Shown: positions 25,401 to 62,499 of the stretch, in pieces
Numbering within the stretch: position 1 is the stretch's first letter
How the letters are laid out: each line of letters begins with the position of its first letter
Source: Takakia lepidozioides
Taxonomy: Eukaryota; Plantae; Bryophyta
Direction: 5' to 3'
NCBI GenBank assembly: GCA_030704615.1
Contig: CM060731.1
Span: 17,546,001-17,610,000 of the forward strand
DNA length: 64,000 nucleotides
Notes under the pieces: generated by a model
Databases searched by the model: none
Seen by the model: the letters and a program-made list of their open reading frames with translations, nothing else
What the model was told of the DNA's origin: nothing
Program-made: the position numbers and the translations under genes

Positions 25401-26277
25401 AGGCCAATCACCCTTTTAAATTCGGTTTACAAAGTCATTGCTAAAACCCTGGCTGCCAGGCTCATCCCCATCATGCCAAAGCTTATCCGCCCTGAGCAAA
25501 CTGGTTTTTTGAAGAAAAGAATGATTCTGGACAATGTCCTCTTGGTTCATGGAGCCCTTCACTACGCTCAGGAATCCAACCAGCCGTTGGCTCTGCTGTT
25601 CCTATTTTTCGAGAAGGCCTTCGATAACGTTGATTGTTTGCTGCCCTTGAAAAGCCTTTGAAAAGTGTGGCATCTCGGGTCCCTTCCTATCCTGGATCAA
25701 GATTTTCCTCCAATCTGCTACCAGTAAAGTCATGGTCAATGGGGTCCTATCCAAACCCTTCCGCCTCTTTCGATCTGTAAGACAGGGTTGTCCCCTTTCC
25801 CCCTTCCTATTCCTGATTGCGGCAGACGGGCTTGGCCATCTGATGCACTCCCAACAGGATATTCTAGGCCTCATGGTTCCTTTTCCACCCTCCCCTAGTT
25901 ACAGCATCAAAAACTCCATGTACGCCGACGACACGGTGCTTTTGATGGACAAGAGCTCCAAGTCAAACATCACCAGATCTCTCACTGCTTTATCCACCTT
26001 TTGTCATGCATCTGGTCTAAAGGGTCAGTTGGGGCAAGTCCATCGGTTTGCTCTCAAAGCTGAACGTTAACGCTGCATCTGCGCATTGTCCAGCTTGGGG
26101 TCAAGACTTCAACCTGTCCTGGCTGCCTGAAGGCCGCTCTCATACGCTGTTGGGCCATCAAATAGATCATGACATGTCTGACACTCAAAGATCCCAATCT
26201 ATGCTAGCTAATCTCAAAAAAAGCCTGGCATACTGGAGTTCCGTGCATCTGTCCATTGCAAGGAGAGTATAACTTGT

Positions 26278-31581: not shown

Positions 31582-33658
31582 GTGCCTATCCTCTCCAGGG
31601 TTTGGCTCAGAATCCAGTTCCAGCTGCTACCATTAAAAGCAAATCCTTTCTCAAACAAGTGCAGCCCAAGCAAGAGCCCGGAGTGTCTCACAAAGAAAGT
31701 TCACCAGCAGATCACACCAGTTGGGTTGCTTGCCCACACCCGCACGGATGGTCGCTGTACTTCCCATGCTGTACCGGATGGGGTGTGCCCACACCCTACA
31801 TTCCGTAAGTCTGGCCTTAATAGACACATGTTCTCAGCGGAAGGGCCCAGGCGAACTCTGGGCTGATCTGCCGGAGGTCCTGCCAGGCTGGTGCTATGGC
31901 CACCAACATTAACGTTCCCCAACTGCTGCTGCTTCAGCTTATAGACAGCCCCGACACGACATCACGGCCTGTATCTACTATGAGGCCATCCCAGGCTGGT
32001 ACCCCTTACCCTTTTCTTTTCAAGCTGAATCCACGACAGGCTGATACTTATGTGCTGTTGTCGAACATCTATGCTGCAGCAGGCATGTGGAACAATACAA
32101 TAAAGATGAGAAAAATGAAACTCATTGCTGGACAGTGGCTGGAAGTTGAGCCTTTTTGGCAAGGCACCCAGTCAGACAAACTTTGTTTCAAGCTGGCCCC
32201 CTTTGGCATCGGGGCTTCCCTTGGGGCAAATCTCTCCCGCGGTCGCCCTCCCACTCAGTACCGTAATTGTGTTGCCCTAGAAGCTACAGCACTAGCTGAA
32301 GTCCAAGACAAGCAGCCCTGTGAGGCAGGCCCGGTGGTTGCAGAATCTAGGGTGCAGCTAAAGGAGGCGAAGGTTACATCATTGTTGGGCCTTTCCAGAA
32401 GCAGGGCAGTCCTTCAACTGGATTGGAGCCAGCCAGCCACTCCTCTCATGTGGTACACTGTAAAGCTCTTTGCTTTTGAGTTCAACTCGCTCATGCATAT
32501 GTTCAGCTCTGCCCCCCTCAGCATGCCAGGTGCGCAACGGCATGGACAGGTCTTTCCCCAGCCCCCAGATGCTGCCCTATATACCGATGACGACCTTCTG
32601 GTTCCCCCCTCTGCGACACCCTCTCCAAGCGAAAAATGTGCAACACCAACGCAATCTGCAGATTTGGGGTTGAACATCCTTGGGCATGTAGGTGGGGCAC
32701 TGCCTCCTTTTCTGATGCCACGAAGCTACAAAGGCTGCTCCCCGCACCAAGATCACGAGAACCCCACATTGATCCCCCGCTCTCTTGGTCAAATAGGCAA
32801 GCCAGTGCCTATGCCGCAGCCTGCCCTGCGATTACAAGTGTGGAATCTGCATACAAGCTTTCCCACACAGCGGATCCCGCTGATCTCCCCTCATCGGCCT
32901 TGGGGGCCCCCTTCCTGGAGCCAGATCAATCAAAGTGATCATGTGGACCCTCAAGCTGTCCAATGGTTTTATCGAGTGTACCTTCGTCCCCAATCATCTC
33001 AATGTCCCTTTACACATCTCAGGGAGCACACTCACTCCTCCCCCCAATCTTGGCTACTCCCCTCCTCCTCCTTGATAAAAATACTTCGCTTTGCATACAA
33101 TGTATTGTCATCACTCTCTGATGTACAGTTGTTATGTCCCAGATGGCTTCCCTACTTCAAGTGGCAACCCACTATCCAACAGGATCAGCCACACAAACCC
33201 CAAAGGCACTCTGTTGCTCAAGACCAACAATCTCAACAGACTTCCCCATGTCAATCGCCACCCATGGTAACACCATTTACTTCTCCATGTAAACCTCTTC
33301 CATTTATAAAATATATCCGCTTGAGCTTAGTCTCGCACAGGCCCAACTCGACTTATCTATTTCTCCCTTACTGGTGTTGCCTTACTCTCTGCTGGCATGT
33401 ACCTACTCATGTGGAACCCCTAAACTCTTTTTTGGTGAGCAATCTAGAGTTTGACTGGCTTCTCATGGGATCCTCGATCTCTTCAACCTCCTTCACTTCA
33501 CCGCCCCCTGCCAAGCGTTCAGGTATCCACCCTGCCACCAATATCCCACCATCGCACACCCCACACCTCTTTTTTCTGGTCATATACAGCTGCCCCAAGT
33601 AGAGTAAACCATGACAATGCCATACGTTTGCTTGATATTTCGCCTGGCTATCCTACCT

Positions 33659-33801: not shown

Positions 33802-36586
33802 TAGCTCACTGCGTTCAATTCCTGTATTCACAATAGCTGACTCAATTTTCCCGTACTATCTATCCTCTGCAGTGCTGCTCTCTAACACTACCCACCCTGC
33901 CTGGGCGATTGCTTTTGGTGGGTGCTACAACAGGGCTGCCACAGTGAAGGTTACTGGTTTGAGCTGTTGCAGGGCATCCCAGATTTTGCAAGTGGAGTCT
34001 AGCACAACTCAGGCACACCAGTGGCCGCAGCTCATCCCCTGCAGCTCCAGAGACCTCACTCTACCCCAGCTCATCCCCACCCCGGCGCCCAAAGCAAGCT
34101 CTGCACACACCATACAAGTCGCTTAGGGAACGCCACGGCACAACTAGTTTGCTTATCTCATGTGCCCTTGCTAGAATGTGGTCTTCAATCCTTATTATTT
34201 GACTATTACAATTTTAACTACCCACCTGGGGTACACTCAATTCTGGCTCAGTCCGACTACACTACTCTAACGCTTATGCCTCACACTACTTCTTCACACC
34301 ATTTACTCACACTAATTCATACTATTTCCCCACACCACTGCCTTGCGCTGTCTTTCCACACCTGTGATACACAAACACACTATCCCCACATGATTGCACA
34401 CCCTCTTCAGCTATGTACTATACTGCTACATCACCTTAATCAAGACACAGCCAATGCCCATCACAACCATACCTGTCCACCAATCCCATTGCCCACAAAT
34501 ACTCATCCATCGCACCCCTCTACCCGATACCCAATACATTCACTTAAAACTCCACCAAATACAAATACCCTCACACTATCTACAAACAATACACTTTCAC
34601 TAGCACAACGTATCTATCCAATATCCTCACCACTATATTCCCACTACAGCCCACCTACTCGCCTTGTCCCCACACGCGGCACCCGGCCTCACCCCTTCCC
34701 GCATTCCGCGTCCCATACACTCCCCCCACCCCTGGGTGCCGCACTACATGGACTGACCGCCTCTCCACACACATAGCCCGCATGGCCGATACCATATTTA
34801 TCTTGACAAATCTAAACACTCCTACCATCACCCTCCCACATCACTTCAGTCATATATGAATGCATGCCTATACCTAACATTACTCCATTGCGGTGATATA
34901 CACCCTAACCCTGGGCCTACACCCATTAACGACATTATTCAAAATCTTCCCGCCGACGCGCAAGACAGATACTCATTATACTTCCAACCGGACACCTTGT
35001 CGCTCATGCATACCTATAGACACATTGGTGACCACTTCACGCCCTTCTTCCCACCACACCCTCCCGCCGCCCGCACACCCACACAAATCATCACCACCTT
35101 CGAGCTCCCCCCTAGCCATTACCCGACACTTTCTAAAGCACTACAAAAACTCAAATCCTTCCCACAGCCCCATCTTCTCTTCTCCCTTATAATCATCATC
35201 TCACCCCTACCAGAAGCCTGTAATGGATTCCTCTACTCCCACTCCACCTCCCAACTACGCCCCCTCCTCCTACAACTAAAAAGGCTGCCACCACACCCAC
35301 ACAACTACTTAGCCCAACCTCACATTCTATCCTCACTCCATGAATCCCTCAATCTGCTGCAATCCCAACCAGGTGCTATACATAAAATCCTAGGCGACCA
35401 TCTCGCTACCATAACCGCTCGTGATACCGACCTTACCGAGGCCACCCACAAATTCCCCACTCGCCGCAGTTAGTCCGATACCTGGATACAATCCCCCGAC
35501 CTCAGCCACCCCAACCAAGGAAGCGTCATTGGTCAAACCCTCTCCCAACCCTACCCCCCTGCACCCCCGGACATCCACACCTGTGCACTAATTATTACTT
35601 CTTGGAATGTAGGATCCCTTGCTACAAAGGCTTCTCACTCTCCTCACCAACTCCTCTAAACCACATATTTTTCTCCTCCAAGAAACCAAGTTACATACAA
35701 ATAATACTAGCGGTTCCTACATCAACAAGCTCCTACCAGACTATTACCTACTGTACGGTACTCCTCTAACTGCCCAACAATGTCTATCTCGTCGCTCTGC
35801 CCCATACCAACCCACCAAGGGAGGCGTTGCACTAGGTATTCTACGCACACACCACTCTCCCAGCACCACCACAAAACTCACGGTACCCATCTCCCTTCGG
35901 TCACACCTCCAAATTATCCAGCTACACCCCCCAGCACTCTGCCCTATCACTTTGATACATCTATACATGCCCACACACCCCGAGGACCTCCCCCTCATTA
36001 CAGACATACTACATAATATCTCCCAAACAATTACTCATCCAGATAACCAACACCACCACGTCATCCTCGCAGGTGACTTTAACAGAGACATTGCCCTGCT
36101 GGGGCACTCACACAATGGTGCCCACAAACCACCATCCTCTGAGGACCACAAATGGGCTCGATACACCCAGCAACTAGACCTAAGATACATCCCGGCAGAC
36201 CATCACTACTCCCAGCAAGGAGGCCTTAACTACTCTTCCTTAAGCCTTTTGGACGGGTTCTACCTCAAAACCAGCAATACTATCCCACCTTACCTCTTGA
36301 GTCACATTCACCTTAATAGCTTATGCAACTCTGATCACTACCCGATCTCTATCTCCCTCCCCCCCTCCCTCATCCCCTTCCGGCCCATTCCGGATGTGCA
36401 CACCCCACCGCCCCAGCCCCGTATACTTTCACCCATACCGCAAACTAACATCAAGGCCTTCCAACAACACTTCCACTCAGCCTCCTCTTCTTTCATCCAC
36501 AAAATATCCACCATACTCTCTGATTCCAATTTACTACTGTCCCCAGAGGCTGCCTGGAATGAAGCTGTCAAGTTATTTTAATGATT

Positions 36587-36914
36587 TGTCAAGTTATTTT
36601 ACCACTAGTGTGAAAACTAGCTAGGAATAGCTAGCTTTTACATATTGACATTTGGGATTGGCCCAAGTGTCAATCCAGGGGTCAAAGCAGATTTAGGCCC
36701 CTGGAGTGGTTATCTTCACGGCAAGCGCGGGAGCTCATCTTTCTCGAGTTGAGCCTCACCGCGCCTAGCTATGGCGCGTAGTGTGTGGATTCCCCATGGC
36801 GTGGGGTGCACTTGGCTTGACTTGTATTTGAGTGATGAGGTTATATATGCATGAGTTTATGCTTCAGCTTTGTGAGCTCGCATGAGCTTGTGCTTGTATT
36901 CTTCTTCTTTATCA
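36587..36914 (+). repeat. Repeat A1 (328 bp)
   Basis: TGTCAAGTTATTTTACCAC...CTTCTTTATCA, near-identical to 48705-49031. Preceded by a duplicate of its first 15 bp (36566-36580). Confidence 0.95.
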
Positions 36915-36932
36915 CTCGAGAAAGATCAGCTC
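36914..36932 (+). promoter_or_regulatory. Putative self-priming primer-binding site
   Basis: ACTCGAGAAAGATCAGCTC is the 18/19 reverse complement of 36731-36749 inside repeat A. No TGG-type tRNA PBS is present. Confidence 0.65.
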
Positions 36933-38446
36933 GTATCTATGAGTGCTAGATACGAGTTAGTTGTAGCACTTGTGGTTTTTGCTTGAGAATGAGAGAAACC
37001 AAGTTGTTATGCAAGGAGCACCATGGAGCTCTTGGTTGTTAGAAGCGGAGGCGATGTGGGTTACGAGGTGGTAGACCTTGGCATTCGATCTTCAGCTTCA
37101 GAGATGAAAGCACCATGCTGCAGGTAATTCCAGAGCACCTTGATGGTTTCAGATTGTGTACATGCATGAGCAAGCACGATTGGGAAGAGGACCAGTCAAG
37201 AGCAGGTTATAGTGGCTTTGGTGGCAAAAGCTGAGAACTGGACTTGGGAATGCGAGCTTTCATTGTGTGAAGGATTGCAAGACCAAGCGAAAGGCTGATT
37301 TGGCTTGGGGCAAATCAGTGCACTTTGTGGAGTATGGTGAGATTGGGTTTCAATCTCGAGCTTCAGCATTGAGAGGGCTCTTGTCATGGCAAGAGCAGGG
37401 CTGGAACAGGAGCTAAGAGGTGCGGCAAGGCCATGGAATGTGCACCTAGGGTTTCAGAGCTTGGAAGAAGAGCTCTTGCACCACAAGAGAAGTGTCTTGT
37501 GGCTGGAAATGTAAGCCTTAGGGTTTCAGGAGCTTGGCAAAGGCTGTGGAGTGCTTAGTCTTGTCTTAGAGAGCATCAAGGAGCCAAGGAGCCAAGATAG
37601 GGGGCTGATATCTCTTGTGTGAAGAGGTTGCATGTGTGGAATGTATTCAGCTCATTGAAGCTTCCATCTTCAAGCTTGGAGGGGCAAGCAAGGAAGAGGG
37701 AAGGGCTGACTTCCCTTATGTGAGGGCAATGTATGTGTGGAGCATGCTATCAGCCTGGTGAAGGCTTGCACTTTTAAGTGTGGGAGTGCAAGAAAGGAAG
37801 GAAGGGGCTGGTTTCCCTGTAGGGCATGTAGAGCATGCTTTCAGCCTGCTGAAGCTTGTATTATCAGGTTTGTGGTGCAAGAAATGAAGCAAAGGAGCTG
37901 ATTCTCTTATGGTGAGAGTGGGGCATGTGTGGAGCATGCCTTCAGCCCATTGAGGCTCTTGTTTTCAAGCCTTAGAGAGCTAGAACGGAAGGTCTAGGGC
38001 TGGTTTCCACTTGGAGTGAAAGAAAAGCACTTGTAGGGCCTATGTGAGTTGGGGTTTCAACTTCAAGCTTGAAGGAGCGCAACTCTTGAAGCAACAGGTG
38101 TAGAGGGCTGGAATAGGCTCTAAGACAGATGTTATGGCCAATGAGAGGTGCTTGAATGAGTGCTCACAAGGGCTGGGAACCAGCAGGGCTTGGTTGTTTG
38201 CCATTGAGTTTAGTGCGTGTTTGGGGAGGCTAAGTGAGAAAGAAGGCTTGGTTTGTGGCAACCACCTCATGGCTTAGGGCTACTATGGTGGTGTGTGGGA
38301 GCCGAAAGAGCAAGGAATACCTTGCTGATTTCCTCACAGCCACCATAGCTCGGTGGAAAGAAGCCTAGAGTCCAAGAGACACAAACCCTAGCTTGGCGTG
38401 GCTAAACCCCTTGGAGAAATGGCTAAACTGCCAGAGCGGCCATGTG

Positions 38447-40690
38447 TGGGGCTGTGACAGGCTGTGGGCAAGCTGTGACGGCTGTGGGCAAAGCTGTGAC
38501 AGGCTGTGATGGGCTGTGTCAGGCTGTGACAGGCTGTGCCTGTGGCCTTTGGGGCTGTGACGGGCTGTGCGGGCTGTGACAGGCTGTGCCCTGAGGCCTG
38601 TGGGGCTGTGACGGGCTGTGACAGGGGCTGTGCCAGTTGGCCTGTGAGGGCGCTGTGACGGGCTGTGTGACAGGCTGTGGATGGCTGTGATGGGCTTGTG
38701 ACAGGCTGTGCATGTGCCTGGTGGGGCTGTTGTGACGCTGTGACAGGCTGTGCCCAGTGGCCTTTGGGGCTGTGACGGGCTGTTGACAGGCTGTGCCTCA
38801 GGCCCTTTGGGGCTGTGACGGGCTGTGAGGGGCTGTGACAGGCTGTGCCCTGTGCCCTGTGGGGCTGTGACGGGCTGTGTCAGGCTGTGGCGAGCTGTGA
38901 CGGGCTGTGCCGGGGCTGTGACAAGCTGTGCCCTGAGGCCTGTGGGGCTGTGACGGGCTGTGACAGGCTGTGCCCATGGCCTTTGGGGCTGTGACGGGCT
39001 GTGACAGGCTGTGCCCAATGGCCTGTGGGGCTGTGACGGGCTGTGACGGCTGTGGCAAGCTGTGACAGGCTGTGATGGCTGTGATGGGCTGTGACAGGCT
39101 GTGCCCTGTGCCCTGTGGGGCTGTGACGGGCTGTGTCAGGCGTGACAGGCTGTGCCCAGTGGCCTTTGGGGCTGTGACGGGCTGTGACAGGCGTGCCGAG
39201 GCCTTTGGGGCTGTGACGGGCTGTGACACCGTGCTGAGGCCTTTGGGGCTGTGACGGCTGTGAGGGGCTGTGACAGGCTGTGCCCTGTGCCCTGTGGGGC
39301 TGTGACGGGCTGTGTCAGGCTGTGGCGAGCTGTGACGGGCTGTGACGGGCTGTGCCCAGTGGGCCTGTGGGGCTGTGCACGGCTGTGACAGGCTGACGCT
39401 GGCCTGTGACTGTGGCTGTGGTGTGAGACGGCGCTGTGATGTGTGGCTGTTGCTGTACTGTGTGTGGCATGACAGGCTGTGTTTTTGTGCTGGTGACCCA
39501 ACTGTGTGACAGGCTGTTCCTTGAGTTTGCCATTTTGTGTGTGTGTGACTGTGTGTGACGGGCGGCTGTGACAATGCTGTGGCGCTGTGCCCTTGTATGG
39601 CTGTGATGGGCTGTGACAGGCTGTGCCCTGTGCCCTGTGGGGCTGTGACGGGCTGTGTCAGGCTGTGACAGGCTGTGCCCAGTGGCCTTTGGGGCTGTGA
39701 CGGGCTGTGGCGGGCTGTGACAGGCTGTGCCCTGAGGCCTATGGGGCTGTGATGGGCTGTGACGGCTGTGGCGAGCTGTGACAGGCTGTGCCCATGGCCT
39801 TTGGGCTGTGACGGGCTGTGAGGGGCTGTGACAGGCCGTGCTGAGGCCTTTGAGGCTGTGACGGGCTGTGAGGGCTGTGACAGGCCGTGCCCATGGCCTT
39901 TGGGCTGTGACGGGCTGTGAGGGGCTGTGACAGGCCGTGCCTGGGCCTTTGGGCTGTGACGGGCTGTGAGGGGCTGTGACAGGCCGTGCCCATGGCCTTT
40001 GGGGCTGTGACGGGCTGTGAGGGGCTGTGACAGGCCGTGCCTGAGGCCTTTGAGGCTGTGGGGGCTATGAGGGGCTGTGACAGGCCGTGCCCTAGCCTTT
40101 GAGGCTGTGACGGGCTGTGATGGGCTGTGGGGGCCAAGCTGTGACAGCTGTGATGGGCTGTGATGGCTGTGACAGGCTGTGCCTGTGCCCTGTGAGGCTG
40201 TGACGGGCTGTGACGGGCTGTGACGGGCTGTGACAGGCCGTGGCCATGGCCTTTGGGGCTGTGACGGCTGTGACAGGCCGTGCCTGAGGCCTTTGAGGCT
40301 GTGACGGGCTGTGAGGGGCTGTGACAGGCCGTGCCCATGGCCTTGGGGCTGTGACGGGCTGTGAGGGGCTGTGACAGGCCGTGCCCATGGCCTTTGGGGC
40401 TGTGACGGGCTGTGACGGGCTGTGACAGGCCGTGCCTGAGGCCTTTGAGGCTGTGACGGGCTGTGAGGGGCTGTGACAGGCCGTGCCCATGGCCTTTTGG
40501 GGCTTGTGACGGGCTGTGAGGGGCTGTGACAGGCCCGCCTGAGGCCTTTTGGGGCTGTGACGGGCTGTGAGGGGCTGTGACAGGCTGTGCCTGAGGCCTG
40601 TGACGAGGCTGTGAGGGAGCTGTGAGGGGCTGTGACAGGCTGTGCCCAGTGGCCTGTGGGACTGTGACGGCTGTGACCAGTGAGCTGTGT
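38447..40690. repeat. About 2.2-kb minisatellite of a 10-bp unit (GGGCTGTGAC) with higher-order structure, in the Gypsy 5' leader
   Basis: Direct observation. Variants GACGGG/GATGGG/GACAGG/GAGGGG, punctuated by GCCC..GGCCTTTG spacers. Confidence 0.97.
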
Positions 40691-40965
40691 GGGCCTGTGC
40701 TGGTCTGTGGTGGCCCGTGTTGACCTGTGGATGGCCTGTGCTGACTCGTGGAGGCACTGGTGGACTAAGGACTGGCATGTGGTCTGGAAGGCCGAATTTT
40801 GAAGCTCGTGGAGGGCGGTTTGAGGAGTATCTTCATGATATTCCCATGGTCATGCCAGTTCAGGTGTAGGCTATGTTAGGAACTTAGTATTCCAAACCAT
40901 AAGCCGCAACAGGTTCTCTACTCGGTTACCTTGTGGAGAGGGGTTAGGGACATGTTCATGACCGG

Positions 40966-42500
40966 GTGAGTGTCAACACGGAGGTGCCACTAGTTGCTGG
41001 GGACAGTGCCGGTTCGAGCACTAGCGATACTAGTGGGTACATGAGACGAGGTGTGCGGTTTAGGCCACCTTCACCTCCTGTGTCTTCCACGGAAGGTTCT
41101 GATTCGGATTGTGAATCAGGAGGCTCATACCGGCGGTTTGCAAGTTGTTTCTTTGCCATTGTTGTGGGACACAATGGAGGAGATGTATGAGCTACCAAGG
41201 GGACCACGAAGGTACTCTGGGGCGGTGGGCACCATTGAGTTGGATGATTTTATCCAAGAGTTTGATAGTTGGTGTGATTTGCAGCAAATGCGCAATCCAC
41301 AACTATTTACGCCGTTCATGGCATGGAAAGGGCTGTTTCAGCACCTTGAGGGGCCGCCTATGGATGATTACCATGAGTTCAGGCGGGGGCATGAGGTTGA
41401 GATCGAGGAGTGGAGGATGTACTGGTCACCCGACTATGTCTCCATCACTAGGGGCACTAGAGCCACGAGGGCAGTGGCTACACCTGCCGCTGCACCGGCA
41501 GCTTCAGCAAGCAGCAGTGGGACTGGTGGCTACAGTAGCTACGACGTCCACCCAAGCCACTACCGCCACCAGCACTAGCACCCGTGCCTGCCTTCAACCC
41601 TGTTGTGGAGTTCTTCGAAGAGTTGAGAGGGGAACTACCAAGGGGTGAGGACAGAGAAGTTGCGGAGCTTGCAAGAGTTCCAACGGAAGACGACGAGAGC
41701 TTGAGGGAGGCTTTCACTCGCATGAGGCGCTTGATAAATGTAACCCAAGGGGTTACGGAAGCTCAGGCAGTCCAATTCTGGTATGGGATATTGGACAAGG
41801 AGCTGAGGAGAAGGGTGCGGGATGCAACTCTCCTACAAGCGGCCCAACCCACCTTAGCAAATGTGTTTTTGCTGGCAGAGCGGATAGAGCTCAACATGGT
41901 GGAGGAACGAGTGGTCATGGTGGGATTTGCTAAGGAGACACCAAGGGGTAGTGGTGCTCCTAGCCAACCACCACCTCAACGTGCTCAAGGCAACAAGGGG
42001 GCTCAGGTGAAGCTCAGGGGAAGGGCAGAGAGGACCTCAGATGCAGGGGTCTCTCCCTTCATTTGCTGGCCAACAACGGGCGGATGTGGTGTGCTGGACA
42101 TGTGGAGGACCCCATGTCAAGAAGGATTGTCCAGAGGGAGGCAAAGGGCCGGCACATGCACAGCCTGCACAGTTACAGTGTGGGCATTGTGGCAAACACG
42201 GGCATGGAGAGGCTCAGTGTTATGGTTTGCATCCTGAGTTGCGCCCAGGCCAGTTCCAAGGGAACAATGGTGGCCGGGGGCGAGGTGGAGCAGCCCAGAG
42301 GGACGAGGTGCCAGCCACGAGGTGCAGGCCAAGGGCAAGCTCAACGTGGCCAAGGACGCGGAGGTCAGGGTGTTGACCAAGGCATGGCCAACCGGCTTCA
42401 GCAGCTAGAGCAGAGGCTCGCTGCCATGGCTACAGCTCAGGTGGTACCGGCTCTAAGGCCGGATGGTCCACTCCTGCTCCTGAGGGAGGAGATATGGGAG
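40966..42500 (+). CDS. Gag of the DNMT-Gypsy (frameshifted)
   Basis: DDFIQEFDSWC..WKGLFQHL, ESLREAFTRMRRL..FWYGILD, and two zinc knuckles (CWTCGGPHVKKDC, CGHCGKHGHGEAQC). Start uncertain. Confidence 0.8.
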
Positions 42501-43079
42501 GCATGGGATTCATGTGTGGAGCAGCACTACCACTAGTGCAGGTGGAGTCTGCTGCTGCAGCCGTGACTCGAGGAGCAGCACGAGTTCCTGAGCCACGAGG
42601 TGCAGAGGTGGAGTTGGATCCACAGCGTGGGGAGGCAAGCCGTCAGGCTAGGCTTCCTCAGTCATTCACATTGGCGGAGACAGTGTCGACGCCATCCATG
42701 GCACCTAGTTCTCGCCCGACTGTTACCGAGGCGGAGGTTACTATGCATTGGGGAGAGCTACACGGGTAGCACCACTACCTAGTGTTGCCAAGGCTACGGC
42801 AGCTAGTGTGCTGCTAGGAGCGGCCACATCTGTGTGCCAGGCTCCATTGTTCTCGGCTACCATGATTGCGACGCCGGGGGTAAGACCAGCTGAGGTGTTC
42901 AGGCTGGCAGCTACACTCTGTGAGAGTGGGGAGGTTACTTCATCTTCTGCGGAGATAGTAGGAGGTGTAGTGCCGGAGGGATCCTCGGATTTGAGGGTTA
43001 AGACTGCCACGGCGGCGCCATGGCAAGCTGCAGCTGCCAGGTTGATGGAGCTGCCAGCTAGGCCAGCCATTGAGCGCGC

Positions 43080-43530
43080 CATGGTGACACCTGGAGTTGT
43101 CATGTTAGACAACCAGGATGGCATTTTCTGTTTGAGTGGACCGGCAGGCAAGAGGTACCGGCCACTGCGGGTCTTGTTGGACTCGGGAGCTCAGCCATTG
43201 ATGCTGGGCAGAGCTGCTATTGCAGGCTTGGGCCTCACGGAGGCGGATATGGAGCCTTGTCCTTTCCAGATACAGACGTCTCTGGGAGGATCGGAGCAGG
43301 CTCGGGGCATGACACGGCGTGAGTTGGCTATCAGACTACGGCCGGATCACCCTACAGATGGCTCAGTGATGCGAGCCAAGGCCATTGTGACAGACGCAGT
43401 CTTACGATGTCCTGGTTGGTGGGGCAGTGTTGTACCCCATGGGCTTCACCCTGGATTTTTGGGAGGAGTCAGCTTCCTATAGGCCTGCATGGCAGTCAGG
43501 GGAGGGCCGGCGTGTGCAGCTCCCTGTGAC
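43080..43530 (+). CDS. Aspartic protease domain of the DNMT-Gypsy
   Basis: RVLLDSGAQPLMLG at ~43168; YDVLVGGAVLYPMG flap-like motif after a frameshift. Confidence 0.85.
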
Positions 43531-43884
43531 GTTCATAGGAGGAGTTGCGGTTGCCCAGCGAGGCAAGATGCCGACACTAGCAGCATTCACAACGGCAGTG
43601 AGTTGGCCTAGAGAGTTGCTTGAGGGCAATGCTCATTCAGAGGATGTACCACCTCCGGGAGAGCAGGATGACATGTATGGTATGGCGGAGTTGCCTACCA
43701 TGGTTGCTCAGACTCCATTGTGGGGGCACGAGCAAGGATTTGCAGCGGGATGCTGATCGACGGGTGCAACAAGCCTGGGTGGAGGCTTTTGTACCGTCAG
43801 GAGAGGAGGAGAGTGTGGGGATTGCACCAGGACCACCTCAATTGTCTCCATTGGACACCACACCTATTGTGTGGCAGTATCCGG

Positions 43885-44820
43885 ATGAAGGCATTTGTCT
43901 TCTGGACTTGTTTGGCGGATCAGCACCGGATTGGCTGCTGTGTTACAGGCAGGTGTACGAGTTCGGCGTTACCTGTATGTGGAGAGGGATGAGACTGCAC
44001 GACGCGTTTCACTTCGCCATGTTGCTCAGTTGGTTTGCAGCGGTACCCTGAGTTGTTGTCGGTGTCTGCAATTTGTGGATATCAGCAGGCCTTGCCAGCA
44101 GACATTTCGTTGCTGGGGGCGCAGGATTTGGAGCGGGTTGGCTCCATTGATCTGGTAGTGGCAGGTTGGCCCTGCCAAGGGCATTCATCAGCCGGGCATG
44201 GCAATGGATTGCGAGACTCGAGGTCGGGTCTGTTTTGGGAGATGGTGCGGGTTTTGCGCCACTTGCAGCTTCATCAAGCTGTATCTCCAGCATACATCTT
44301 GGAGAATGTGCCACTGATGGGCGATTCTCGGGCCAGGGTGATGGCCAGTGTGCATCAAGTCCGGTCGTGGCTTGGGTCAGCAGTGTTGCTAGATGCAGCT
44401 ACAGTGGGGTCACGGGCTCATCGTCCACGGCTATGGTGGACTAACATGATGCCACCCGCACTGCTCAAGCGTGCATTTGATGGGGTGCAGCGGCCAGCAC
44501 ATCTCACAGTGGATAACATTCTGGACACAGGGAGGCAGTCTCAACGTGTGAGACACGATGACCGTTCGCCTTTGGCAGTGGTCAACAAGGTGGGTCAACC
44601 ACGAGCAGCATTACCTACACTGCTCAGCTTCCCAGGATCGCATGCTTTCCGGGATAGTGGACCTGGCCTCCTGTGGGATGCTCAGTTGCAGCAGTTAGTG
44701 GAGCCTAATGCTGACGAGCGTGAGCGGGCAATGGGTTTTAACCACTGGTACCACGGCGGTGTCGTCTGAGGCATGTCACAAGCAATGGATCTCAATTGCT
44801 TGACCTGGATTATCAGCTTG
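43885..44820 (+). CDS. DNMT3-like C5 cytosine DNA methyltransferase domain within the polyprotein
   Basis: Motif I LDLFGG(I)STG (43902), II YVERD, III ADI, IV GWPCQGHS (Cys 44173-44175), VI ILENV (44302), VIII AHRPRLWWTN, IX ERERAMGF, X QAMD. Small frameshifts and a short deletion before motif X. Confidence 0.9.
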
Positions 44821-45279
44821 GCTCTAGCTGAGCAACGCAGAGTGCGGAATACACTTCCCTCAATGGTCTCTCTGCCTACCGAGACGGTACAGGCAGTGAG
44901 TGGGGGCGAGCATATGAGGACCACGGGGTGCATGCATCCATGGCACACGTGGGAGGTGCTCGAGGTTCAGAGGGAGTTGGCAGCCAAGGCGGCTGTGATG
45001 GATGAGGTTGGGGATTCTTCTCGGGTTGAGGAGGTCCTCAAGGATGAGATGATGGGGCAGGATGAGGCCTTGTCATTGACTGAGCAGGTAGGGAGTACTG
45101 CTCAAGAGGTTGCAGCATAGCAACCACGGGACGCGTCCTCTACCTCTAAGCCCACTGGACTTAAGGTTGTAGTTACGGAGGACAATTGGGAGCCTGACAT
45201 TGGACCCATTGTCACCGGAGGAGAGAGACGACGTATACGGCGGTTCCTGAGGGCTTACAGGAATTGCTTTGCCTTCAGT

Positions 45280-48254
45280 TTGAAGGACTTGGGAGCACTG
45301 AAGGGTCAAGAGATCCGTATTGAGTTGGCCACTGACACGCCAATCTTTCGGAGACCCTATAGATACAGTGACATGGAGAGGTCTTTGATTCAGATGAGGA
45401 CTCAAGATCTCTGGGAGGCAGGTTTGGTGGAGCTCTCTGGTGGAGAGTATGCTTCAGCCACAGTGATGCCAGCCAAGAAGGATGTCTATGGCAATTGGAC
45501 GGAGAGACGTATGTGCGGTGATTACCGGCCTGTAAATCGTCAGACCAAGTCCGATAAGTATGCCATGCCAACACCAGAGGAGATCTTTGATGCCATCGGG
45601 CATACTAAGGCCTTTAGCACTTTGGATTTACGATCCGGATATCACCAGTTGCCAATCAAGGAGGCGGACAAGCAGAAGACGGCATTCTGGGGGATCAATG
45701 AGCACGGCAAGGATTGCCTATATCAGTGGCGGTTCTTACCATTTGGGCTTAAGAATGCTCCTGCAGAGTTTCAGAGAGTCATGGATAGGATTCTAGCAGG
45801 GGTGGACTTTGCTCGGTGCTACATAGATGACATCATCATCTTTAGTGTTACGATGGAGGAGCATGAGAGACACCTTCAGGTGGTATTGGAGCGCTTGAGA
45901 GCGCACGGATTGAAGTTGCATCCGGGGAAGTGCAAGTTTTTCCACGACCAGATTGAGTATCTGGGTCACATGATATATCCTGGAGGATTGGGGGTACAGC
46001 AGACTAAGGTAGAGGCCATTGCACAAATTCCACGCCCCACGGATGTGAGCCGAGTTCGAGCTTTCATGGGGTTGGCAAACTATTATAGACGGTTTGTCAA
46101 GGGATTTAGTACCATTGCAAAGGCTCTAACCAAGCTGACCAAGGTGGACCAGGAGTGGCAGTGGGAAGATGAGCAGGAACGAGCTTTTCAAGAGCTCAAG
46201 GCGAGGTTGACCTCGGCGCCTATCTTGAGACGACCTATCAGGGGGCGTCCTTTCAGCTGCATACGGATTGGAGCATGCTGGGGCTTGGAGCGGTGCTCAC
46301 ACAGGTGGATGATGAGGGAAGAGAGTTCGTAGTGGCTTACGCTAGCCGCTCGAACAACGCTGCAGAGGCTAAGTACAGCTCATATGAGGGAGAGTGCTTA
46401 GCTGCAGTGTGGGCCGTGGCACACTTCAGGTGCTATCTATACGGCAATCTTTTCACCCTTGTCACGGATCACCAGCCACTCAAGTGGTTGATGGAGTCAG
46501 ACAAGCTTACGGGGAAGCTTGCACGGTGGGCACTTATACTCCAGGAGTATGACTTTCAGGTTGTGCATCGACCGGGTTTGGTCAATCGGGATGCGGATGG
46601 ATTGAGTCGCAATCCATGCATGAGCCAGCAGGATGACACTGGAGCTCGGTGGCATGGTGAGACGGACGAGGAGATGGTGCCGGGATGGCACGCATCTGCA
46701 TTTTTGTGTATCTTGGCATCGGGAGGTCAGATTGGACCTACAACAGGGATGACTGTAGACGGAGTGTCTGAGGACCCTGAGGCTAGTGATGAGCTAGGTG
46801 GTGCCAGAGATATACATGAGGATTCGGCTGTGTTGGACTACCTCCGCACGGGAGACACGGCAGCCATTGTGACTGCCAGGGAGAGGGATCGGATCCTGCA
46901 ACGAGCCAAGAGGTTCAAGTGGGAGGGGATACACCTACTTCGAGTGTGGGAGGATGGTCGGGTGAGGATTGTGCCTCACCCCACACAGCGTGCACGGTTA
47001 GTGCGGCATGCCCATGAGGAGTTGGGGCATTTTGGAGTGCGACGCACTCACAGTTTACTGCAGGGGCAGTATTGGTGGCGTGGTATGCATACAGAGGTGC
47101 AACAGTTTGTGGCTAGGTGCATGGTGTGTGACAGGGTGCGTGCTTCATTCAACGCCCCTACACCACAGTTGCATCCTTTACCTATCATGGGATTGGGCTA
47201 CAGGTGGAGTCTTGACTTCGCAGGACCGTTGCCATTGACTATGCGCCACCACAGATATGTGTTGGTGATGGTGGAGCACTTCTCCAAGTGGATTGAGTTG
47301 GTTCCATTGCCTGACAAGGCTAGTGAGGAGGCTGCGTATGCATTCTTGGATCGTGTGCTTAGCCGATTTGGTGCTCCAGCTGAGGTACTCACGGACCAAG
47401 GGAGAGAGTTCTTGGGGGAGTTTCAGGCTTTGTGTGATAAAGCCTTGATCGACCACCGCACCACTTCTCGGGATCATCCTGAGGCCGATGGCTTAGCAGA
47501 TAGAGTTGTTCAGACGGTGAAGAGGGGTTTGCGCAAGTATGGCTTGCAGAAGGGACACCTAGGAGATTGGGATCTTCAGGTTCCTTGGTTAGCCATGGGC
47601 TACAGGTTCAGCAAACAAGCATCACTTGCCTCCTTCTCACCATATTTCCTTCTCTTTGGCCGAGAGCCGGATTTGCCTGCAGCCATTCGTAGGGACACTG
47701 CTCAAGTCCTTAACCTTGACGATCCGGACGTGTGGGTACGTGCATGTGATCAGCGTGCAGAGTTGTTCAAGAAAGTCATGCCCATGGCTTTTGAGAACCT
47801 TGCCATTGCACAGCACCGTGATACGTTGAGGTATGCCACTATACGTGGTGGAGGATATCGTCCTGGGGTTCGGAGGTTTAGCCCTGGTGACTATGTTTAT
47901 TTGCAGCAGACTGCTCCTACGACTCTGGATGTTACTGCAGGGCGTGTTATTCTGAGGGTTCGAGAGGTATTGCCCTCAGGGGTCCTGATCTTGGAGGGTC
48001 GGGATGGCATGACTTGGAAGGACCATGTGCGTAATTGTGCGCCATGTCACCTTCCCAATGTCGATGGCAGAGTTGACCCAAACTTGGCAGTGGTACCTGC
48101 AAGTTTGAGGTGCATGCTCTGTGGGTCTGCCAAAGGGGCAGCCACCATGCTGGTGTGTGATCGATGCTCAAGGGGTTGGCATATGGGATGCTTGACACCA
48201 CCTCTTGAGAAGGTTCCTGACGGAGATTGGTTGTGTCCACACTGCTTGGGATAG
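45280..48254 (+). CDS. Pol: RT, RNase H, integrase, C-terminal PHD finger (one frameshift near 46255)
   Basis: RMCGDYRPVN, LDLRSGYHQ, PFGLKNAP, YIDD; YASRS..ECLAAVWA..TDHQPL; HHCC (HEELGH..CMVC); LDFAGP, TDQGREF, GLADR; C4HC3 PHD CMLC..CDRC..HMGC..WLCPHC. Confidence 0.95.
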
Positions 48255-48503
48255 TGGCAGTGGACATGACTGGAGGCAGCTAACAAGACATGGGAGGCCA
48301 AGCTCATAGGAGTCAATACATGAGATCCCAAGCTCAAGTTCACAGGTTGCAAGACGGCGACTAACGATGGGGCAACTCTTGCACCCGGCCTCTTGATCTA
48401 TCGAGTTTGAGTGTAGTAGGGATAGTGGTGGAGGACTTAGTGAGGCTATGGTCACTATCACATCTTGTGGCTACCTGGACTTAGAGGGACCTAAGCACCA
48501 GCT

Positions 48504-48514
48504 AGGGGGGCGAT
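48504..48514 (+). promoter_or_regulatory. Polypurine tract
   Basis: AGGGGGGCGAT immediately before the TG that starts repeat B1. Confidence 0.75.
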
Positions 48515-48702
48515 TGTGTGGACTAGTGACTGCCATAGTGGGCAGCGTAGTGGCAGCCTAGTGACTGACTAGTTGTAGCCTAGTGGTTGGACTAGTGGCT
48601 GGACTAGTGGTAGACTAGTGGTATACTAGTGTGTGGTGTGCACATGTGTTGTGTGGTTTTGGACAGCGATGTAGTTGTGTAGCGATATGTATGCGCACGA
48701 CA
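48515..48702 (+). repeat. Repeat B1 (188 bp)
   Basis: TGTGTGGACTAGT...GCGCACGACA; appears identical to 49033-49220. Confidence 0.95.
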
Positions 48703-48704
48703 GC

Positions 48705-49031
48705 TGTCAAGTTATTTTACCACTAGTGTGAAACTAGCTAGGAAATAGCTAGCTTTTACATATTGACATTTGGGATTGGCCCAAGTGTCAATCCAGGGGT
48801 CAAAGCAGATTTAGGCCCTGGAGTGGTTATCTTCACGGCAAGGGCGGGAGGCTCATCTTTCTCGAGTTGAGCCTCACCGCGCCTAGCTATGGCGCCGTAG
48901 TGTGGATTCCCCATGGCGTGGGGTGCACTTGGCTTGACTTGTATTTGAGTGATGAGGTTATATATGCATGAGTTTATGCTTCAGCTTTGTGAGCTCGCAT
49001 GAGCTTGTGCTTGTATTCTTCTTCTTTATCA
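48705..49031 (+). repeat. Repeat A2 (327 bp)
   Basis: Copy of A1, separated from B1 by GC and from B2 by T. Confidence 0.95.
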
Positions 49032-49032
49032 T

Positions 49033-49220
49033 TGTGTGGACTAGTGACTGCCATAGTGGGCAGCGTAGTGGCAGCCTAGTGACTGACTAGTTGTAGCCTA
49101 GTGGTTGGACTAGTGGCTGGACTAGTGGTAGACTAGTGGTATACTAGTGTGTGGTGTGCACATGTGTTGTGTGGTTTTGGACAGCGATGTAGTTGTGTAG
49201 CGATATGTATGCGCACGACA
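49033..49220 (+). repeat. Repeat B2 (188 bp), right terminus of the element
   Basis: Copy of B1, followed by the TSD AAGC. Confidence 0.95.
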
Positions 49221-51372
49221 AAGCTGACACGGCAATCACATCCACATTACAAGACATGACTAAGAGTGTGTTAGCCACATGCTCTACCCTCCCTGACCTC
49301 CCCCAAACGATGCGATCAACACAAAACGGAGGATATCTCACCAGAACTCAGAAACGAGAATGGACAGCATATCTCAACATATACCACACCATACGCCGCA
49401 CGCTTGCAGTTATACCTCCCCCCCCCCCCCCGGCCCCCTTATTCAATAACTGGAGGACGGACCCACGCATCACATGCTTAAACACCCTACCTAAATGTCA
49501 ACCAATTATGCCCCCACCTGCGGACGCCCCCACCTGCGGACGCCCCCTCTCTCCCTCAATGGATCGCCTCCCTCTCTAAGCTCGGACGGGAAGCAAAAAG
49601 AGTTGCTTATCTTATCACCAAACAAAAAGCCTCCACCAACCACAAAAAAATTATCGCCTCATTTGGCCAACTACTACATGACCACCCGAAAACGCCCACA
49701 AAGCCATCTTCAACCCTGCCATTAACCCGCCTATCGATTGCCTCAAACACAGACTGGGGCACCTACTAACCAAACCTGCAGACATCAACAAAGAAATCTA
49801 GCACCAAGCCTCTTCTTCCTACACACCTAATGTAGACAGCTGTCTACATCCTAGGCATCACACACCCAACTGCATATGCAAAGTCAAACATTACCCATGG
49901 CATGATCTCGACGGCTATTCTCTGGACAAACGAGGGTCCCCCACGGACCGCATCCTTGACCTCTTCACAATTGGCCTATATGACTCGTGCATAAAAGCTC
50001 TACCCAAAGCAAAAGCCCCCGGCCCAGACCTCATCCATAATGCCATCCTACAGTCGCTTGACCCCCAATTTCATGCTCTGCTCTTCAAATTCTTCCGACT
50101 CTGCTACCAACTTCATCGTATCCCACATGCATGGAAACATAGCCGAACCATTCTACTATTCAAAAAAGGCGACCCCACCGACCTCGGTAATTACAGACCC
50201 ATTGCCCTCGCTAACACTATCTACAAACTATTCACTAGCACCCTCACCACGATGCTATCTTCCTATGGCGAACAACACCGTATTTTAAGCGACCCCCAGA
50301 AGGCTTCCGCGGAACGCGTAGCACTACCAGGCAAATCCAATATGTCTTATCTGCCCTTGAAGACGCCAAACTCACTAAACAAGATATCTACCTCCTCTAC
50401 ATTGACTTTAAGAACGCCTTTGGCTCCATGGACCACCCACGTCTCCTCGCCATCATGACGGACCTAGGCTACCCGCTAGATGCCATCCAACTCATTGGGA
50501 ACATCTACACCAACAGCAGCACCGAATACACTGGCTCATACTATGGCACCACCCCCCCTATCCCCATCCTTCGCGGTACCATCCAAGGAGACACTCTGAG
50601 CCCCTACCTATTCATCATCTTTCTAGAACCTCTCTTACGCTGGTTTGCCCGTGGTAACTTGGGCTACCACTATAAAACCTCCCTTACTGAAATCTCAGCG
50701 GCAGCATATGCTGACGACCTCGCTATCCTAGCACATCAGCCTCAGCACCTCAACCGACAGGCTGACAAATTATATCGCTTTAATCAATGGTCAGGTATGG
50801 AACTAAGCCTAAACAAATGTGCGGTCACCGCCGCCACCCACGGCAGTAAACTCAAATAATCCACGATAGCTTCCCATTGCATGCTCCACCTGCACTATCA
50901 ACAAAAATCTTTCCCCTTCTTAGGTCCGGATGAACCCTACACTTATCTAGGCATACAATTGGTTCCATCCCTAAGTTGGCATATACAAAAGAGCACCACC
51001 CTTTCCAAACTAACCAACAAGAGTTTAGCTCTACTCAACGCCCCAATCTCCATTCGCCCTAAACTAACTATCATCCAAAGAGTTCTCAACCCTCAAATCC
51101 AATACGCATTTCACGCAGCCTCCTTCTCTATACCAGATGTCAAACTACTCGACTCCAAAATTATCCAACTCACCAAACGTATTTGTGGCCTACCCACCAG
51201 CACCCCTAATGTTCTTACCCAACTCCCACAGGACAGTTTTGGGATTGGCACTAGCCCCTTGATCATCTCTTATGCCCGCACCCTCGGCTCACAACTTATA
51301 GAGGCTCTTAACGACCCCGGCCGCCTCGGACTAATCTTCCGAGGTCTCCTTAAACACTTTGCACATAAATAT

Positions 51373-52980
51373 AATGTTGAAGTACATTTGTCTGTTGTGA
51401 TCTTGATCGGAGTCGCATAAAGTGCAAATGCCGCATCCTTTTTGGTAACTCTCATTAAAGCTCTAGTCCAAAGAACAGGGGTTGAAAACCTTGATATTTC
51501 TATATTTTTGTCTTGCAGAAATTTTTCCCGATCGCCAATCGATGTCAGGATTGTGAAGTACGAACCAGGAAAGTCCAAGGATCACATGATTCGTTGGAGA
51601 CTGGATAACGTTGAAAACAATATGTGATGCTTGATCTTTAAGCTTCACTTCAAGTGGTTGAGTTTCATGGTCCACATTTCATGATGCTAACGGTCGTCCA
51701 TCGATGACTTCAACGGGGGCCGAGAGTTTCTTCTTTACGAGCGTTAAATTGTATTGCATCGCAAAGTTTTTGTCCATAAAACAAGCTGAAGCCCCTGAGT
51801 CCAAAAGTGCTTCTATAGAGATATCTCGATTTTGCACTCTGATTTTTACCGAAACTGTGAAGCAAGGTGCAGGGTCTGGAGGTAGAAATAGACATTTTTT
51901 CGGTGAGGAATTTGTGGTGTCCAGCTGCATGGTCCCTACTGTGACTGGACATCTTCATTTTCCGACCTCATCGTATCGAACACTTGAGTTGCGCCCCGAG
52001 CTTTTAATCTTCTCTTGTTGGGATAGTTTAATGTTATGCAATCTTCATCTCCGCAATAGAGGCATAATCCATTCGAGCGTCGTTTTTGTTTTTCTTGTGG
52101 CGTCAATGGCTTGAATCGGACAGCATCAATCTGCATAGGATTACTACCGGATGTCTGATGGATCGTTGTGCTTGGTGCCGTAGTAGCAGCGGCATGATGC
52201 GTCGTCGATCATCCCGATCGCTTCTCTCGACGTCTTTCGAACAAACGATTATCGCATGCAATGACTTGGGTGATGAATTCACTCAGTGTGCTCACGTTTG
52301 GCATTGTCAGCAACAAATCTTTTACATCCTCTTTAAGCCCACATCGAAACTGACTAATGAGGCTCTTCTCATTCCAGTCGAGGTCGCACGCAAGTTGTCG
52401 AAATTCGGTAGCATAAACGGAAGCATGACGTGCTCCTTGTCGAAGATTTCGCATCTTTGTCTCTGTAATTCTTTCTATATCATTCTCTCCAAACGTTGCA
52501 GTGAACTCGGACATGAATGCTTCACAATTTTATAATAAACGTGAATTTTTTTCTAATAGCGGTGCAAACCAAGATAGGGCAGTGCCTGATAGAAGGGTGC
52601 CCACGAATCCCACTTAAATACCTTCATCGGGGTAGCGTTGTGGATGTAGTCGTAGGAACAGTCGTACTTGTTGAACAAAACCGCGAAATCTTAATCTCGT
52701 CCCATAAAATTTCTCGGGCATGCTGACCGTTGGTTCTCCCGTAATCTGTTGAAGAGGAACCGTTGCAGTAGGAGCTCTTGCCGTAGGGACTCGTATGGTT
52801 GAAGATCCATTGTTCGACTCCTTTAACTCTTAAATTTGGTGGAGAGCGTTGCCAAGATCTTGAGACTGATCAGCTTGCAATTGGGCGGTAGAGGTACGAA
52901 GTTCTTGCATCTGGAGCTGAAGACTTTGCAATGTGGCGACCATTTCCGCAAATGTGCCTTCCATCTTAACTATCTAAGGA
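51373..52980 (-). mobile_element. Tcn1/chromovirus-like Gypsy gag-protease remnant (RT/RH/INT deleted)
   Basis: LRQGARHASVYATEFRQLACDLDWNE..FRCGL, PMQID, degenerate CLYCG knuckle, ALLDSGASACFMD, VILGLSWFVLHNPDIDW. Confidence 0.85.
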
Positions 52981-61900: not shown

Positions 61901-62499
61901 CCCATCAAACTGTGCTGGCACGTATTGAACCCGTTGCACAGGAAGGGACTCCCAGTCAACAAAACGCAGCTCGCTCTTGCACCCAGGCACACCTGCGAGG
62001 GCTTTCAATTTTGGAATGACACTCGTTATCTCTTGCAATTCGTCATCATCCAATGACGGAGTTGCACTGGCGGAGGAATCTCAGAAACATCCTCCGAGGA
62101 CGAGTCTGAAAGAGTCACGAAGGTAGTGGATGTGCTCACCTCTTGTTTCACAGGAACTGTGCCCTTCTGTTGCACGACCGATGCTGCAGTGCCAGGGGTA
62201 ACGACCGATCCTGCTGATTGTCTTCTCTCTTTTCCAAGGACACGGTATGTGCCTGGAAGGACTCTCCACTTCCTTCCACACTTGCCAACCAATGGTTTCT
62301 CCAAGTGCCCAGAATCCAAATTCCCATCCTCGTCATACACCTCTTTTTGAACAAGGAGAGAACCCAACTCCAGCGGGAACACTGTAACCAGCTCATCCTC
62401 ATGAACAACTGCAAACCCATCGTCGTCTGCAGTGGCAGTCAGTGGAAGAGTACCTGCATTGGAATGGAATCGAGCAAGTGTATCTCGCTCCCTCGACAT
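58940..62499 (-). CDS. MULE-type transposase: GCM-like Zn domain, DDE core, SWIM finger (one intron, two frameshifts)
   Basis: CVGHCKCQNISC..CRFC..HMGAHEHP; MFDH, FMADSAQA, CLFHW, NLAETVH; SWIM CTCPDF..CKH. GT-AG intron 60482-60353 is in phase; frameshifts at ~62055 and ~60515. Confidence 0.75.

Follow-up and report, generated by a model that had tools for sequence, protein, structure and literature searches.

The 64,000-nt stretch of Takakia lepidozioides DNA analysed here (the window; features lie on the plus strand unless stated otherwise) contains a broken Ty3/Gypsy retrotransposon belonging to the KnitGypsy-Dnmt3 type. Its first open reading frame (ORF1) joins Gag, an aspartic protease (PR) and a DNMT3-like cytosine methyltransferase, an enzyme predicted to be packaged and to methylate the element's own newly made cDNA. 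We give this reading a probability of about 0.68. An enzyme of this sort in a Gypsy element is not new in principle, and the Takakia element is a land-plant variant of the KnitGypsy-Dnmt3 kind. What is added is a wide spread among bryophytes, two positions of the domain within pol, a readthrough-type stop and a replication anatomy, which together make up a testable mechanism.

The element measures 12.65 kb (36566..49220), has TG...CA ends read from the sequence and, in the window sequence, interrupts a LINE. The 5' part of this host LINE (35613..36565; AP endonuclease, Exo_endo_phos E 2.2e-6) has a frame that stays open to the junction, and the frame is picked up at the far junction by the 3' part (49221..51420; RT, RVT_1 E 2.2e-22). 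A 4-bp target-site duplication, AAGC, flanks the insertion on the left (36562..36565) and right (49221..49224), and the empty site was found in sequencing run X2 from the same organism (joint 36561->49221, 'both = 4'). The left end also carries a 21-nt partial duplication of itself (36566..36586), either real or an assembly artefact. By CpG/CHG depletion, the element could not be told from its flanks (CpG 0.53 in the element vs 0.48-0.70 in the flanks), and no tRNA gene was found within the 64-kb window. Another LINE fragment, likewise encoding endonuclease and RT, lies at 23419-25661 (+).

The 5' untranslated region holds an internal tandem-repeat array (38450..40750) with a 10-nt subunit and a higher period of ~51 nt. 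The gag region (41183..42500) is frameshifted and without a Pfam match; it matches the N-terminus of the Marchantia and Sphagnum relatives and includes two zinc-knuckle-like motifs (42092-42130 and 42179-42220). Next comes the aspartic protease (43099..43400; motif 43174-43194), for which ORF1 of a relative, L023, gave an Asp_protease_2 match at E 2e-4, below the cut-off. Downstream of the methyltransferase lie the reverse transcriptase (45121..46244; RVT_1 45505-45975, E 1.6e-33; YIDD 45820-45831), RNase H (46245..46550; RT_RNaseH E 3e-35), an integrase (IN) with an H2C2 finger and a DDE core in which the D-D-E positions were located (46980..47900; Integrase_H2C2 E 1.2e-16; rve E 9.4e-15) and a C-terminal PHD finger (48111..48251; PHD E 9.9e-11). 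The PR-RT-RNase H-integrase order, the Gypsy-type RNase H, the H2C2/DDE integrase, the TG...CA ends and the 4-bp target duplication are all those of Ty3/Gypsy elements. Two full co-linear LTRs at the ends are lacking, the repeats being split as A...B-A-B. Neither the element nor the scanned ORFs of its relatives gave a Chromo domain match, and the PHD finger stands in that place. REM1 of Chlamydomonas is reportedly a PHD-bearing Gypsy element. Gypsy-7a_cRei, also from Chlamydomonas, resembles the Takakia element in having a PHD finger in a green-lineage Gypsy polyprotein; the likeness is one of description only, and the portion of the source that bears on it mentions no DNMT (PMC9940879).

The methyltransferase domain (43860..44860) sits between PR and RT. 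The first-pass annotation had noted C5-methyltransferase motifs in canonical, non-permuted order with PC, ENV and RxR, and all of these were located on the plus strand: motif I DLFGG (43905-43919), motif II (43970-43990), motif III (44101-44115), motif IV AGWPCQG (44161-44181), motif VI YILENV (44293-44310), motif VIII AHRPRLWWTN (44416-44445), motif IX (44716-44739) and motif X AMDLN (44782-44796). A profile search bears this out, with Pfam DNA_methylase (PF00145) matched at E 2.2e-13 (50.8 bits vs a cut-off of 22). The same annotation had called the domain DNMT3-like and set aside the permuted order of plant DRM, and both points held. Judged by profile and predicted fold, the domain is DNMT3-like and not DRM-like or bacterial. 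A profile of 19 family sequences found DNMT3A in the PDB at E 1.8e-23, as against 7e-10 for the next non-DNMT3 entry, 7.7e-8 for DRM2 and 8.7e-8 for HhaI; with a Calypogeia relative, DNMT3A was likewise best (E 8e-11; DRM2 2e-4; HhaI 3e-3). The predicted structure of the open part (237 aa, pLDDT 82) had DNMT3C, DNMT3B and DNMT3A as its top folds, and matches to phage enzymes were limited to motifs IV-VI (best E 4e-13).

As assembled, the Takakia copy is unable to give an active enzyme, because breaks near 43917, 44034 and 44740 scatter its DNMT domain across three frames and part of the motif IX-X stretch has been lost in a short deletion near 44779. The damage is not a family trait, since contigs of sister copies differ from this copy at all four places. 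Moreover, the indels between the two A repeats comprise six events, all of them run-length changes, a pattern indicative of long-read error; it suggests that some of the element's single-base frameshifts are spurious. Some frame breaks of the Takakia copy may thus be errors of assembly.

ORF1 is closed by an in-frame TAG followed by CAA CCA (45118..45126), a predicted readthrough signal that is conserved in the family. The TAG (45118-45120) is kept in a sister contig, whose 26 differences all fall elsewhere. Fifty-four loci have a DNMT followed by the pre-RT region, and in every one of the 29 that are close to the Takakia element a stop lies 16-27 codons before that region. The stop is followed by CARYY in 24/29 and by the full CARYYA in 5/29, against a background of 9/541 for CARYY after premature stops elsewhere; 20 of the 24 are near-copies of one Sphagnum-like family, with a context of mostly CAACCC, one base off the consensus. 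A more distant family (the L039 type) has the signal in 0/25 loci and no stop at that point in 18/25. The layout is intact in L023, where two open frames, a 1369-aa Gag-PR-DNMT and a 1047-aa RT-RNase H-integrase-PHD, are parted by TAG CAGTTA; L111 has TAG CAATCA at the same point. Stop-bearing elements form one RT clade (SH-aLRT 98, quick tree), and the proteins of the liverwort relatives end ~90 residues after motif X. Folding of the 120 nt after the stop in four families gave no shared structure by eye.

In tobacco mosaic virus (TMV), CAR YYA after UAG is the readthrough signal, and 6-10% readthrough is reported from stable transgenic plant lines (PMC2754532). The stops of SIRE1 and RIRE2 are likewise described as UAG then CAR YY(A), as in the DNMT clade (PMC2754532, PMC2194720), whereas the signal of the DNMT clade comes after a methyltransferase in a Gypsy ORF1 and often misses the final A. 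RT and integrase are thus likely to be made by readthrough of the stop after DNMT. A conserved stop of the leaky type at this point would make ORF1 Gag-PR-DNMT and place packaging of the enzyme at the level of Gag rather than with Pol. We infer that DNMT is made at Gag level, with RT and integrase at a few percent of it. The first-pass annotation had the enzyme packaged with pol; it does lie inside a Gypsy element, but it is not continuous with RT/Pol, as it closes ORF1 before the conserved stop. Dosage at Gag level is not required by all members, given that the L039 type is without the signal and that KnitGypsy-Dnmt3 has DNMT and RT in one ORF.

The repeats are split in a regular way. Repeat A1 (36587..36914, 328 nt; predicted to comprise part of U3, R and U5) opens the element, and the PHD finger is followed by a polypurine tract (PPT; 48502..48512), directly before repeat B1 (48513..48702), then by two bases, repeat A2 (48705..49031) and repeat B2 (49031..49220), which has one base in common with the end of A2. 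A1 is 97.6% identical to A2 (1 substitution, 7 gap columns). B1 and B2 are 100% identical over 190 nt, and the insertion is therefore likely young. A G-run similar to the polypurine tract occurs in 21/24 loci. Where B1 meets A2, both element ends are reproduced around a 2-nt spacer, giving a fused att junction, CGACA-GC-TGTCA (48698..48709). The complete A-coding-B-A-B order was found in 5/27 loci (the window, L037, L039, L045 and L065; L labels denote metagenome loci) and one of the two repeats in 7 more, many of the 27 being truncated or decayed. Four of the six loci with both ends shown have a 4-bp target-site duplication (the window, L039, L050 and L065; no match in L037 and L045). With one mismatch allowed, the CA-nn-TG motif of the B1|A2 junction was present in 12/24 loci vs 12/125 coding stretches; with two, the figures of 17/24 loci vs 9/22 controls are too loose to use.

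Directly after A1 lies a site resembling a primer-binding site (PBS; 36915..36932). A tRNA PBS typically begins with TGG, and this one does not. By reading, it is complementary at 17/18 positions to a stretch within A1 (36731..36748), the predicted self-primer at the 5' end of the transcript. Indeed, 7/7 loci, from three unrelated sequence families, have a mid-A site that can pair with the 14-18 nt following A1, at 12-14/14 positions and with 0/200 nulls reaching this in each. The Takakia element scores 13/14 against a null mean of 9.1 (0/200), and its self-primer and PBS-like site are paired in the MFE fold (z -6.18). A clear TATA box lies ~30 nt upstream of the self-primer in 5/7 loci; the Takakia A repeat has no clear one. 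On this pattern of bases, the complementarity is the signature of self-priming of the Tf1/Tj1 type. Tj1 and Tf1 of fission yeasts and plant Tcn1 all have a PBS that pairs with the transcript's 5' end (PMC4600332, PMC6317226). Tj1 also needs an in-frame stop for activity, placed after Gag and not, as in the Takakia clade, after Gag-PR-DNMT. In the accounts of them consulted, Tj1, Tf1 and Tcn1 have ordinary LTRs and no DNMT, and Tcn1 has a chromodomain where the Takakia element has a PHD finger.

The observed A...B-A-B order follows only if the ends of the cDNA are joined and a single internal CA-GC-TG is cut after each CA, from which we infer that the integrase opens end-joined cDNA. Integration from joined cDNA at CA-nn-TG would correspond to the circle-junction route that was proposed for retroviruses and then, as the source has it, abandoned in favour of linear DNA (PMC11054761). 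A relative (L050, 14555-14600) and a sister copy (run X2, joint 49030->49106) have deletions where A2 meets B2. De novo formation of that joint by end joining would be expected to leave such deletions; most joints seen are precise.

The lineage is widespread. Among 94 longer protein relatives, with Marchantia and Calypogeia at 72%, 36 carry the DNMT after gag/protease or before RT, as in the Takakia element (Marchantia, Calypogeia, Sphagnum, Closterium and environmental sequences); 41, among P0040-P0094 (P labels denote protein relatives), carry it ahead of the integrase, mostly as RT-RNase H-DNMT-integrase-PHD; and in 17 only the DNMT is visible, the gag counts in this classification being undercounts. 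The relatives with DNMT ahead of the integrase form one clade in both trees (SH-aLRT 98 for DNMT, 94 for RT), and two positions within the same DNMT clade mean that the domain moved within pol at least once. Chromochloris is among them, so that the DNMT-Gypsy lineage seems, from these proteins, to extend to chlorophytes. The Takakia DNMT itself groups with those of Marchantia, Calypogeia and Sphagnum (18 rows, SH-aLRT 98) in a quick tree of 85 rows made up of transposable-element and prokaryotic/phage sequences only, with no host DNMT3, DRM or K. nitens sequence. A quick RT tree of 43 rows, restricted to family and fetched sequences with no reference-lineage RTs, agrees with it; two of its rows labelled 'other' (L068p and L041o) are members of the DNMT family.

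The best 80 of 202 metagenome loci repeat the domain order of the Takakia element, and only 4 of these 80, several of which lie at contig edges, passed a test for a fully open DNMT domain. In four sequencing runs from the host, the DNMT is covered to the same read depth as RT, integrase and gag. Summed family depth in run X2 is ~1e6 vs 60-110 for single contigs, a measure of high abundance and not of copy number. The DNMT domain is under purifying selection across the family, as sequence comparison tells it. Against Sphagnum-type copies, synonymous sites are saturated, with dN ~0.21 for DNMT, 0.37-0.41 for PR and 0.15 for RT. Of 18 pairs computed, three pairs of distinct copies (window/L040, L023/L024, L034/L039) gave an omega of 0.10-0.12, and other near-copies gave 0.19-0.83, with RT decayed alike; for the decayed near-copies the range is 0.29-0.83. 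A scan of prokaryote genomes returned only one close match, itself one of these retrotransposons. Locus L111, whose contig bears the title of a Synechococcales MAG, shares with L023 the stop signal and 73% identity across 6.1 kb, and P0022, labelled Obscuribacterales, is likewise one of these retrotransposons. Both look, from their sequences, like eukaryotic contigs misbinned into bacterial MAGs.

The closest known system is KnitGypsy-Dnmt3 of Klebsormidium nitens, which has Gypsy domains, DIRS-like repeats and a DNMT with Ka/Ks <0.2 that is encoded together with RT and RNase H in a single ORF (de Mendoza et al. 2018, PMC5890265). It has in common with the Takakia element an intronless, non-permuted Dnmt3-like domain in a Gypsy element, the A-coding-B-A-B order and purifying selection. 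The Takakia host, in contrast, is a land plant, and a conserved stop parts DNMT from RT. An ORF that unites DNMT with RT and RNase H is absent from the Takakia clade but present in the L039-type sister family and in P0235. The passages of PMC5890265 on KnitGypsy-Dnmt3 give no PHD finger, target-site duplication, priming mode or att junction, and the two elements are likened here by description only, not by sequence; the protein search returned no relative named as K. nitens. SymbioDIRS-Dnmt3 of a dinoflagellate likewise combines a Dnmt3-like domain in a retrotransposon with A-B-A-B repeats, and differs in having a tyrosine recombinase where the Takakia element has a DDE integrase (PMC5890265).

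The most serious competitor to cDNA methylation, though an unlikely one, is that the domain is retained for binding and not for catalysis on DNA: inside the particle it would attach to or protect cDNA or RNA, or it would depend on a partner from the host, and it would not mark new copies on its own. In yeast, no methylation was obtained with the K. nitens domain, a result its authors call inconclusive; human DNMT3B was negative in the same test, and SymbioDIRS-Dnmt3 was active there, with de novo CG methylation (PMC5890265). Past motif VIII, the target-recognition region looks different by eye from that of DNMT3A and is poorly aligned by HMMER, and motif IV reads EC rather than PC in many type-B relatives. 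That said, the catalytic Cys, the Glu of ENV/ENT and RxR are kept across families whose synonymous sites are saturated. The stop raises a question of its own: it might be a true one that splicing or a separate transcript for pol circumvents, rather than one that is read through. The commonest context is CAACCC, not the full CARYYA, and the gag-pol stop region of Tca2 showed no readthrough in yeast (PMC2194720). We consider bypass improbable, as a single stop is all that parts ORF1 from ORF2, which are exactly in frame, and five families with otherwise dissimilar linker proteins retain CARYY.

The repeats could also be taken at face value. Their layout is that of DIRS-order elements (PMC5890265), and a DIRS/PAT-type element would replicate from the 3' end of its RNA with a tyrosine recombinase supplied in trans. 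Such elements are marked by a tyrosine recombinase and by the lack of a target duplication. The Takakia element, however, has a DDE integrase, with no recombinase domain among the ORFs scanned, and TG...CA ends with a 4-bp target-site duplication, a polypurine tract before B1 and a PBS-like site after A1. The target duplications already largely refute this alternative, which we hold to be very improbable. Finally, a broken copy with run-length errors typical of long reads might be a one-off, a fragment of a host or bacterial methyltransferase in one Gypsy copy, or a chimera of the assembly. Dozens of independent loci, as well as named proteins of liverworts and mosses, have the DNMT at the same position, the DNMT and RT trees agree, and depth is equal over gag, DNMT, RT and integrase; the family-wide position and equal read depth refute a one-off insertion or chimera. 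The domain is thus integral to a Gypsy family and is not missing from the sister elements, an absence that the first-pass annotation had named as grounds for giving up its view.

Under the favoured reading, a packaged ORF1 enzyme acting on the element's own cDNA, ribosomes would mostly stop after DNMT, with a few percent reading on into RT-RNase H-integrase-PHD. Each Gag would bring one DNMT, so that DNMT would outnumber RT and integrase. The RNA would prime itself as in Tf1, and the plus strand would start at the polypurine tract, so that ordinary reverse transcription would yield a cDNA of the form B-gc-A...B-gc-A whose true terminal repeat is B-gc-A. Its ends would be joined by ligation or by an end-to-end jump of RT (the A|B joint), and the integrase would then cut after each CA of the internal CA-GC-TG palindrome, leaving 2-nt 5' overhangs and an A...B-A-B insert. 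DNMT released by the protease would methylate cytosines of the cDNA before or at integration, and new copies would thereby arrive resembling the methylated DNA of the host. The PHD finger would probably steer insertion by reading histone H3. Methylation of the cDNA or of the insertion site by DNMT is a predicted role. A broader proposal, which we put forward tentatively and at somewhat under even odds, is that an ancient green-lineage Gypsy clade is alive in land plants and combines Gag-level DNMT3 behind a leaky stop, tRNA-free self-priming and joined cDNA opened by the integrase at CA-nn-TG; its DNMT may pre-mark the new copy and possibly determine at which of two identical att palindromes the cut is made.

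The idea of self-methylation was already proposed in PMC5890265. Our literature search, which left subscription papers, theses and Repbase outside its scope, found no description of a DNMT-carrying Gypsy element in land plants, and the article text of PMC5890265 does not name Marchantia. Later mentions, in the text consulted, are of 'streptophyte' elements only (PMC12344493; bioRxiv 10.64898/2026.05.21.726589), and the supplementary trees of these papers may include bryophytes. The first-pass annotation had not known such elements to be established in land plants; with relatives in Marchantia, Calypogeia and Sphagnum and no land-plant paper found, that assessment appears sound. The searched literature likewise held no description, for these elements, of a stop with CARYY after DNMT, of self-priming or of a fused att site, and searches on split repeats with an integrase and on CARYYA in retrotransposons turned up no description of such elements.

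The finding extends self-methylating retrotransposons, as they are predicted to be, beyond algae to Marchantia and Sphagnum. Genetics and methylomes are available for both, so that a transposon's use of its own DNMT becomes testable. In bryophytes, de novo methylation depends on DNMT3 (PMC10952607). Annotated 'DNMT' genes in bryophyte genomes are in part these elements. Two predictions follow: enzyme dosage from the conserved stop, and from the repeat anatomy an integration through joined cDNA ends, which is not the accepted route for LTR elements.

The window holds several further frames. At 31824-33602 (+), an otherwise low-complexity frame has a short PPR E-motif match (E 9.6e-6, below the cut-off). 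Inspection by eye of two long frames of 512 and 530 codons at 58940-62080 (-) suggests MULE-like transposase motifs and a weak SWIM finger, without a significant Pfam match, and a frame at 57194-57865 (+) resembles a CACTA/EnSpm transposase by eye, with no Pfam match at E 0.01. An intronless 733-codon open frame at 20395-22596 (-) encodes a plant peptide:N-glycanase (PNGase) whose closest named match, among the 7997 best candidates scored, is from the moss Ceratodon (55%), followed by gymnosperm (52%), lycophyte (49%) and angiosperm (44-50%) sequences; this ranking fits a land-plant host, probably one of bryophyte grade. A ClpP/ClpR-like frame of 323 codons at 13216-14187 (-) is also intronless, and the two may reflect intron loss or be retrocopies.
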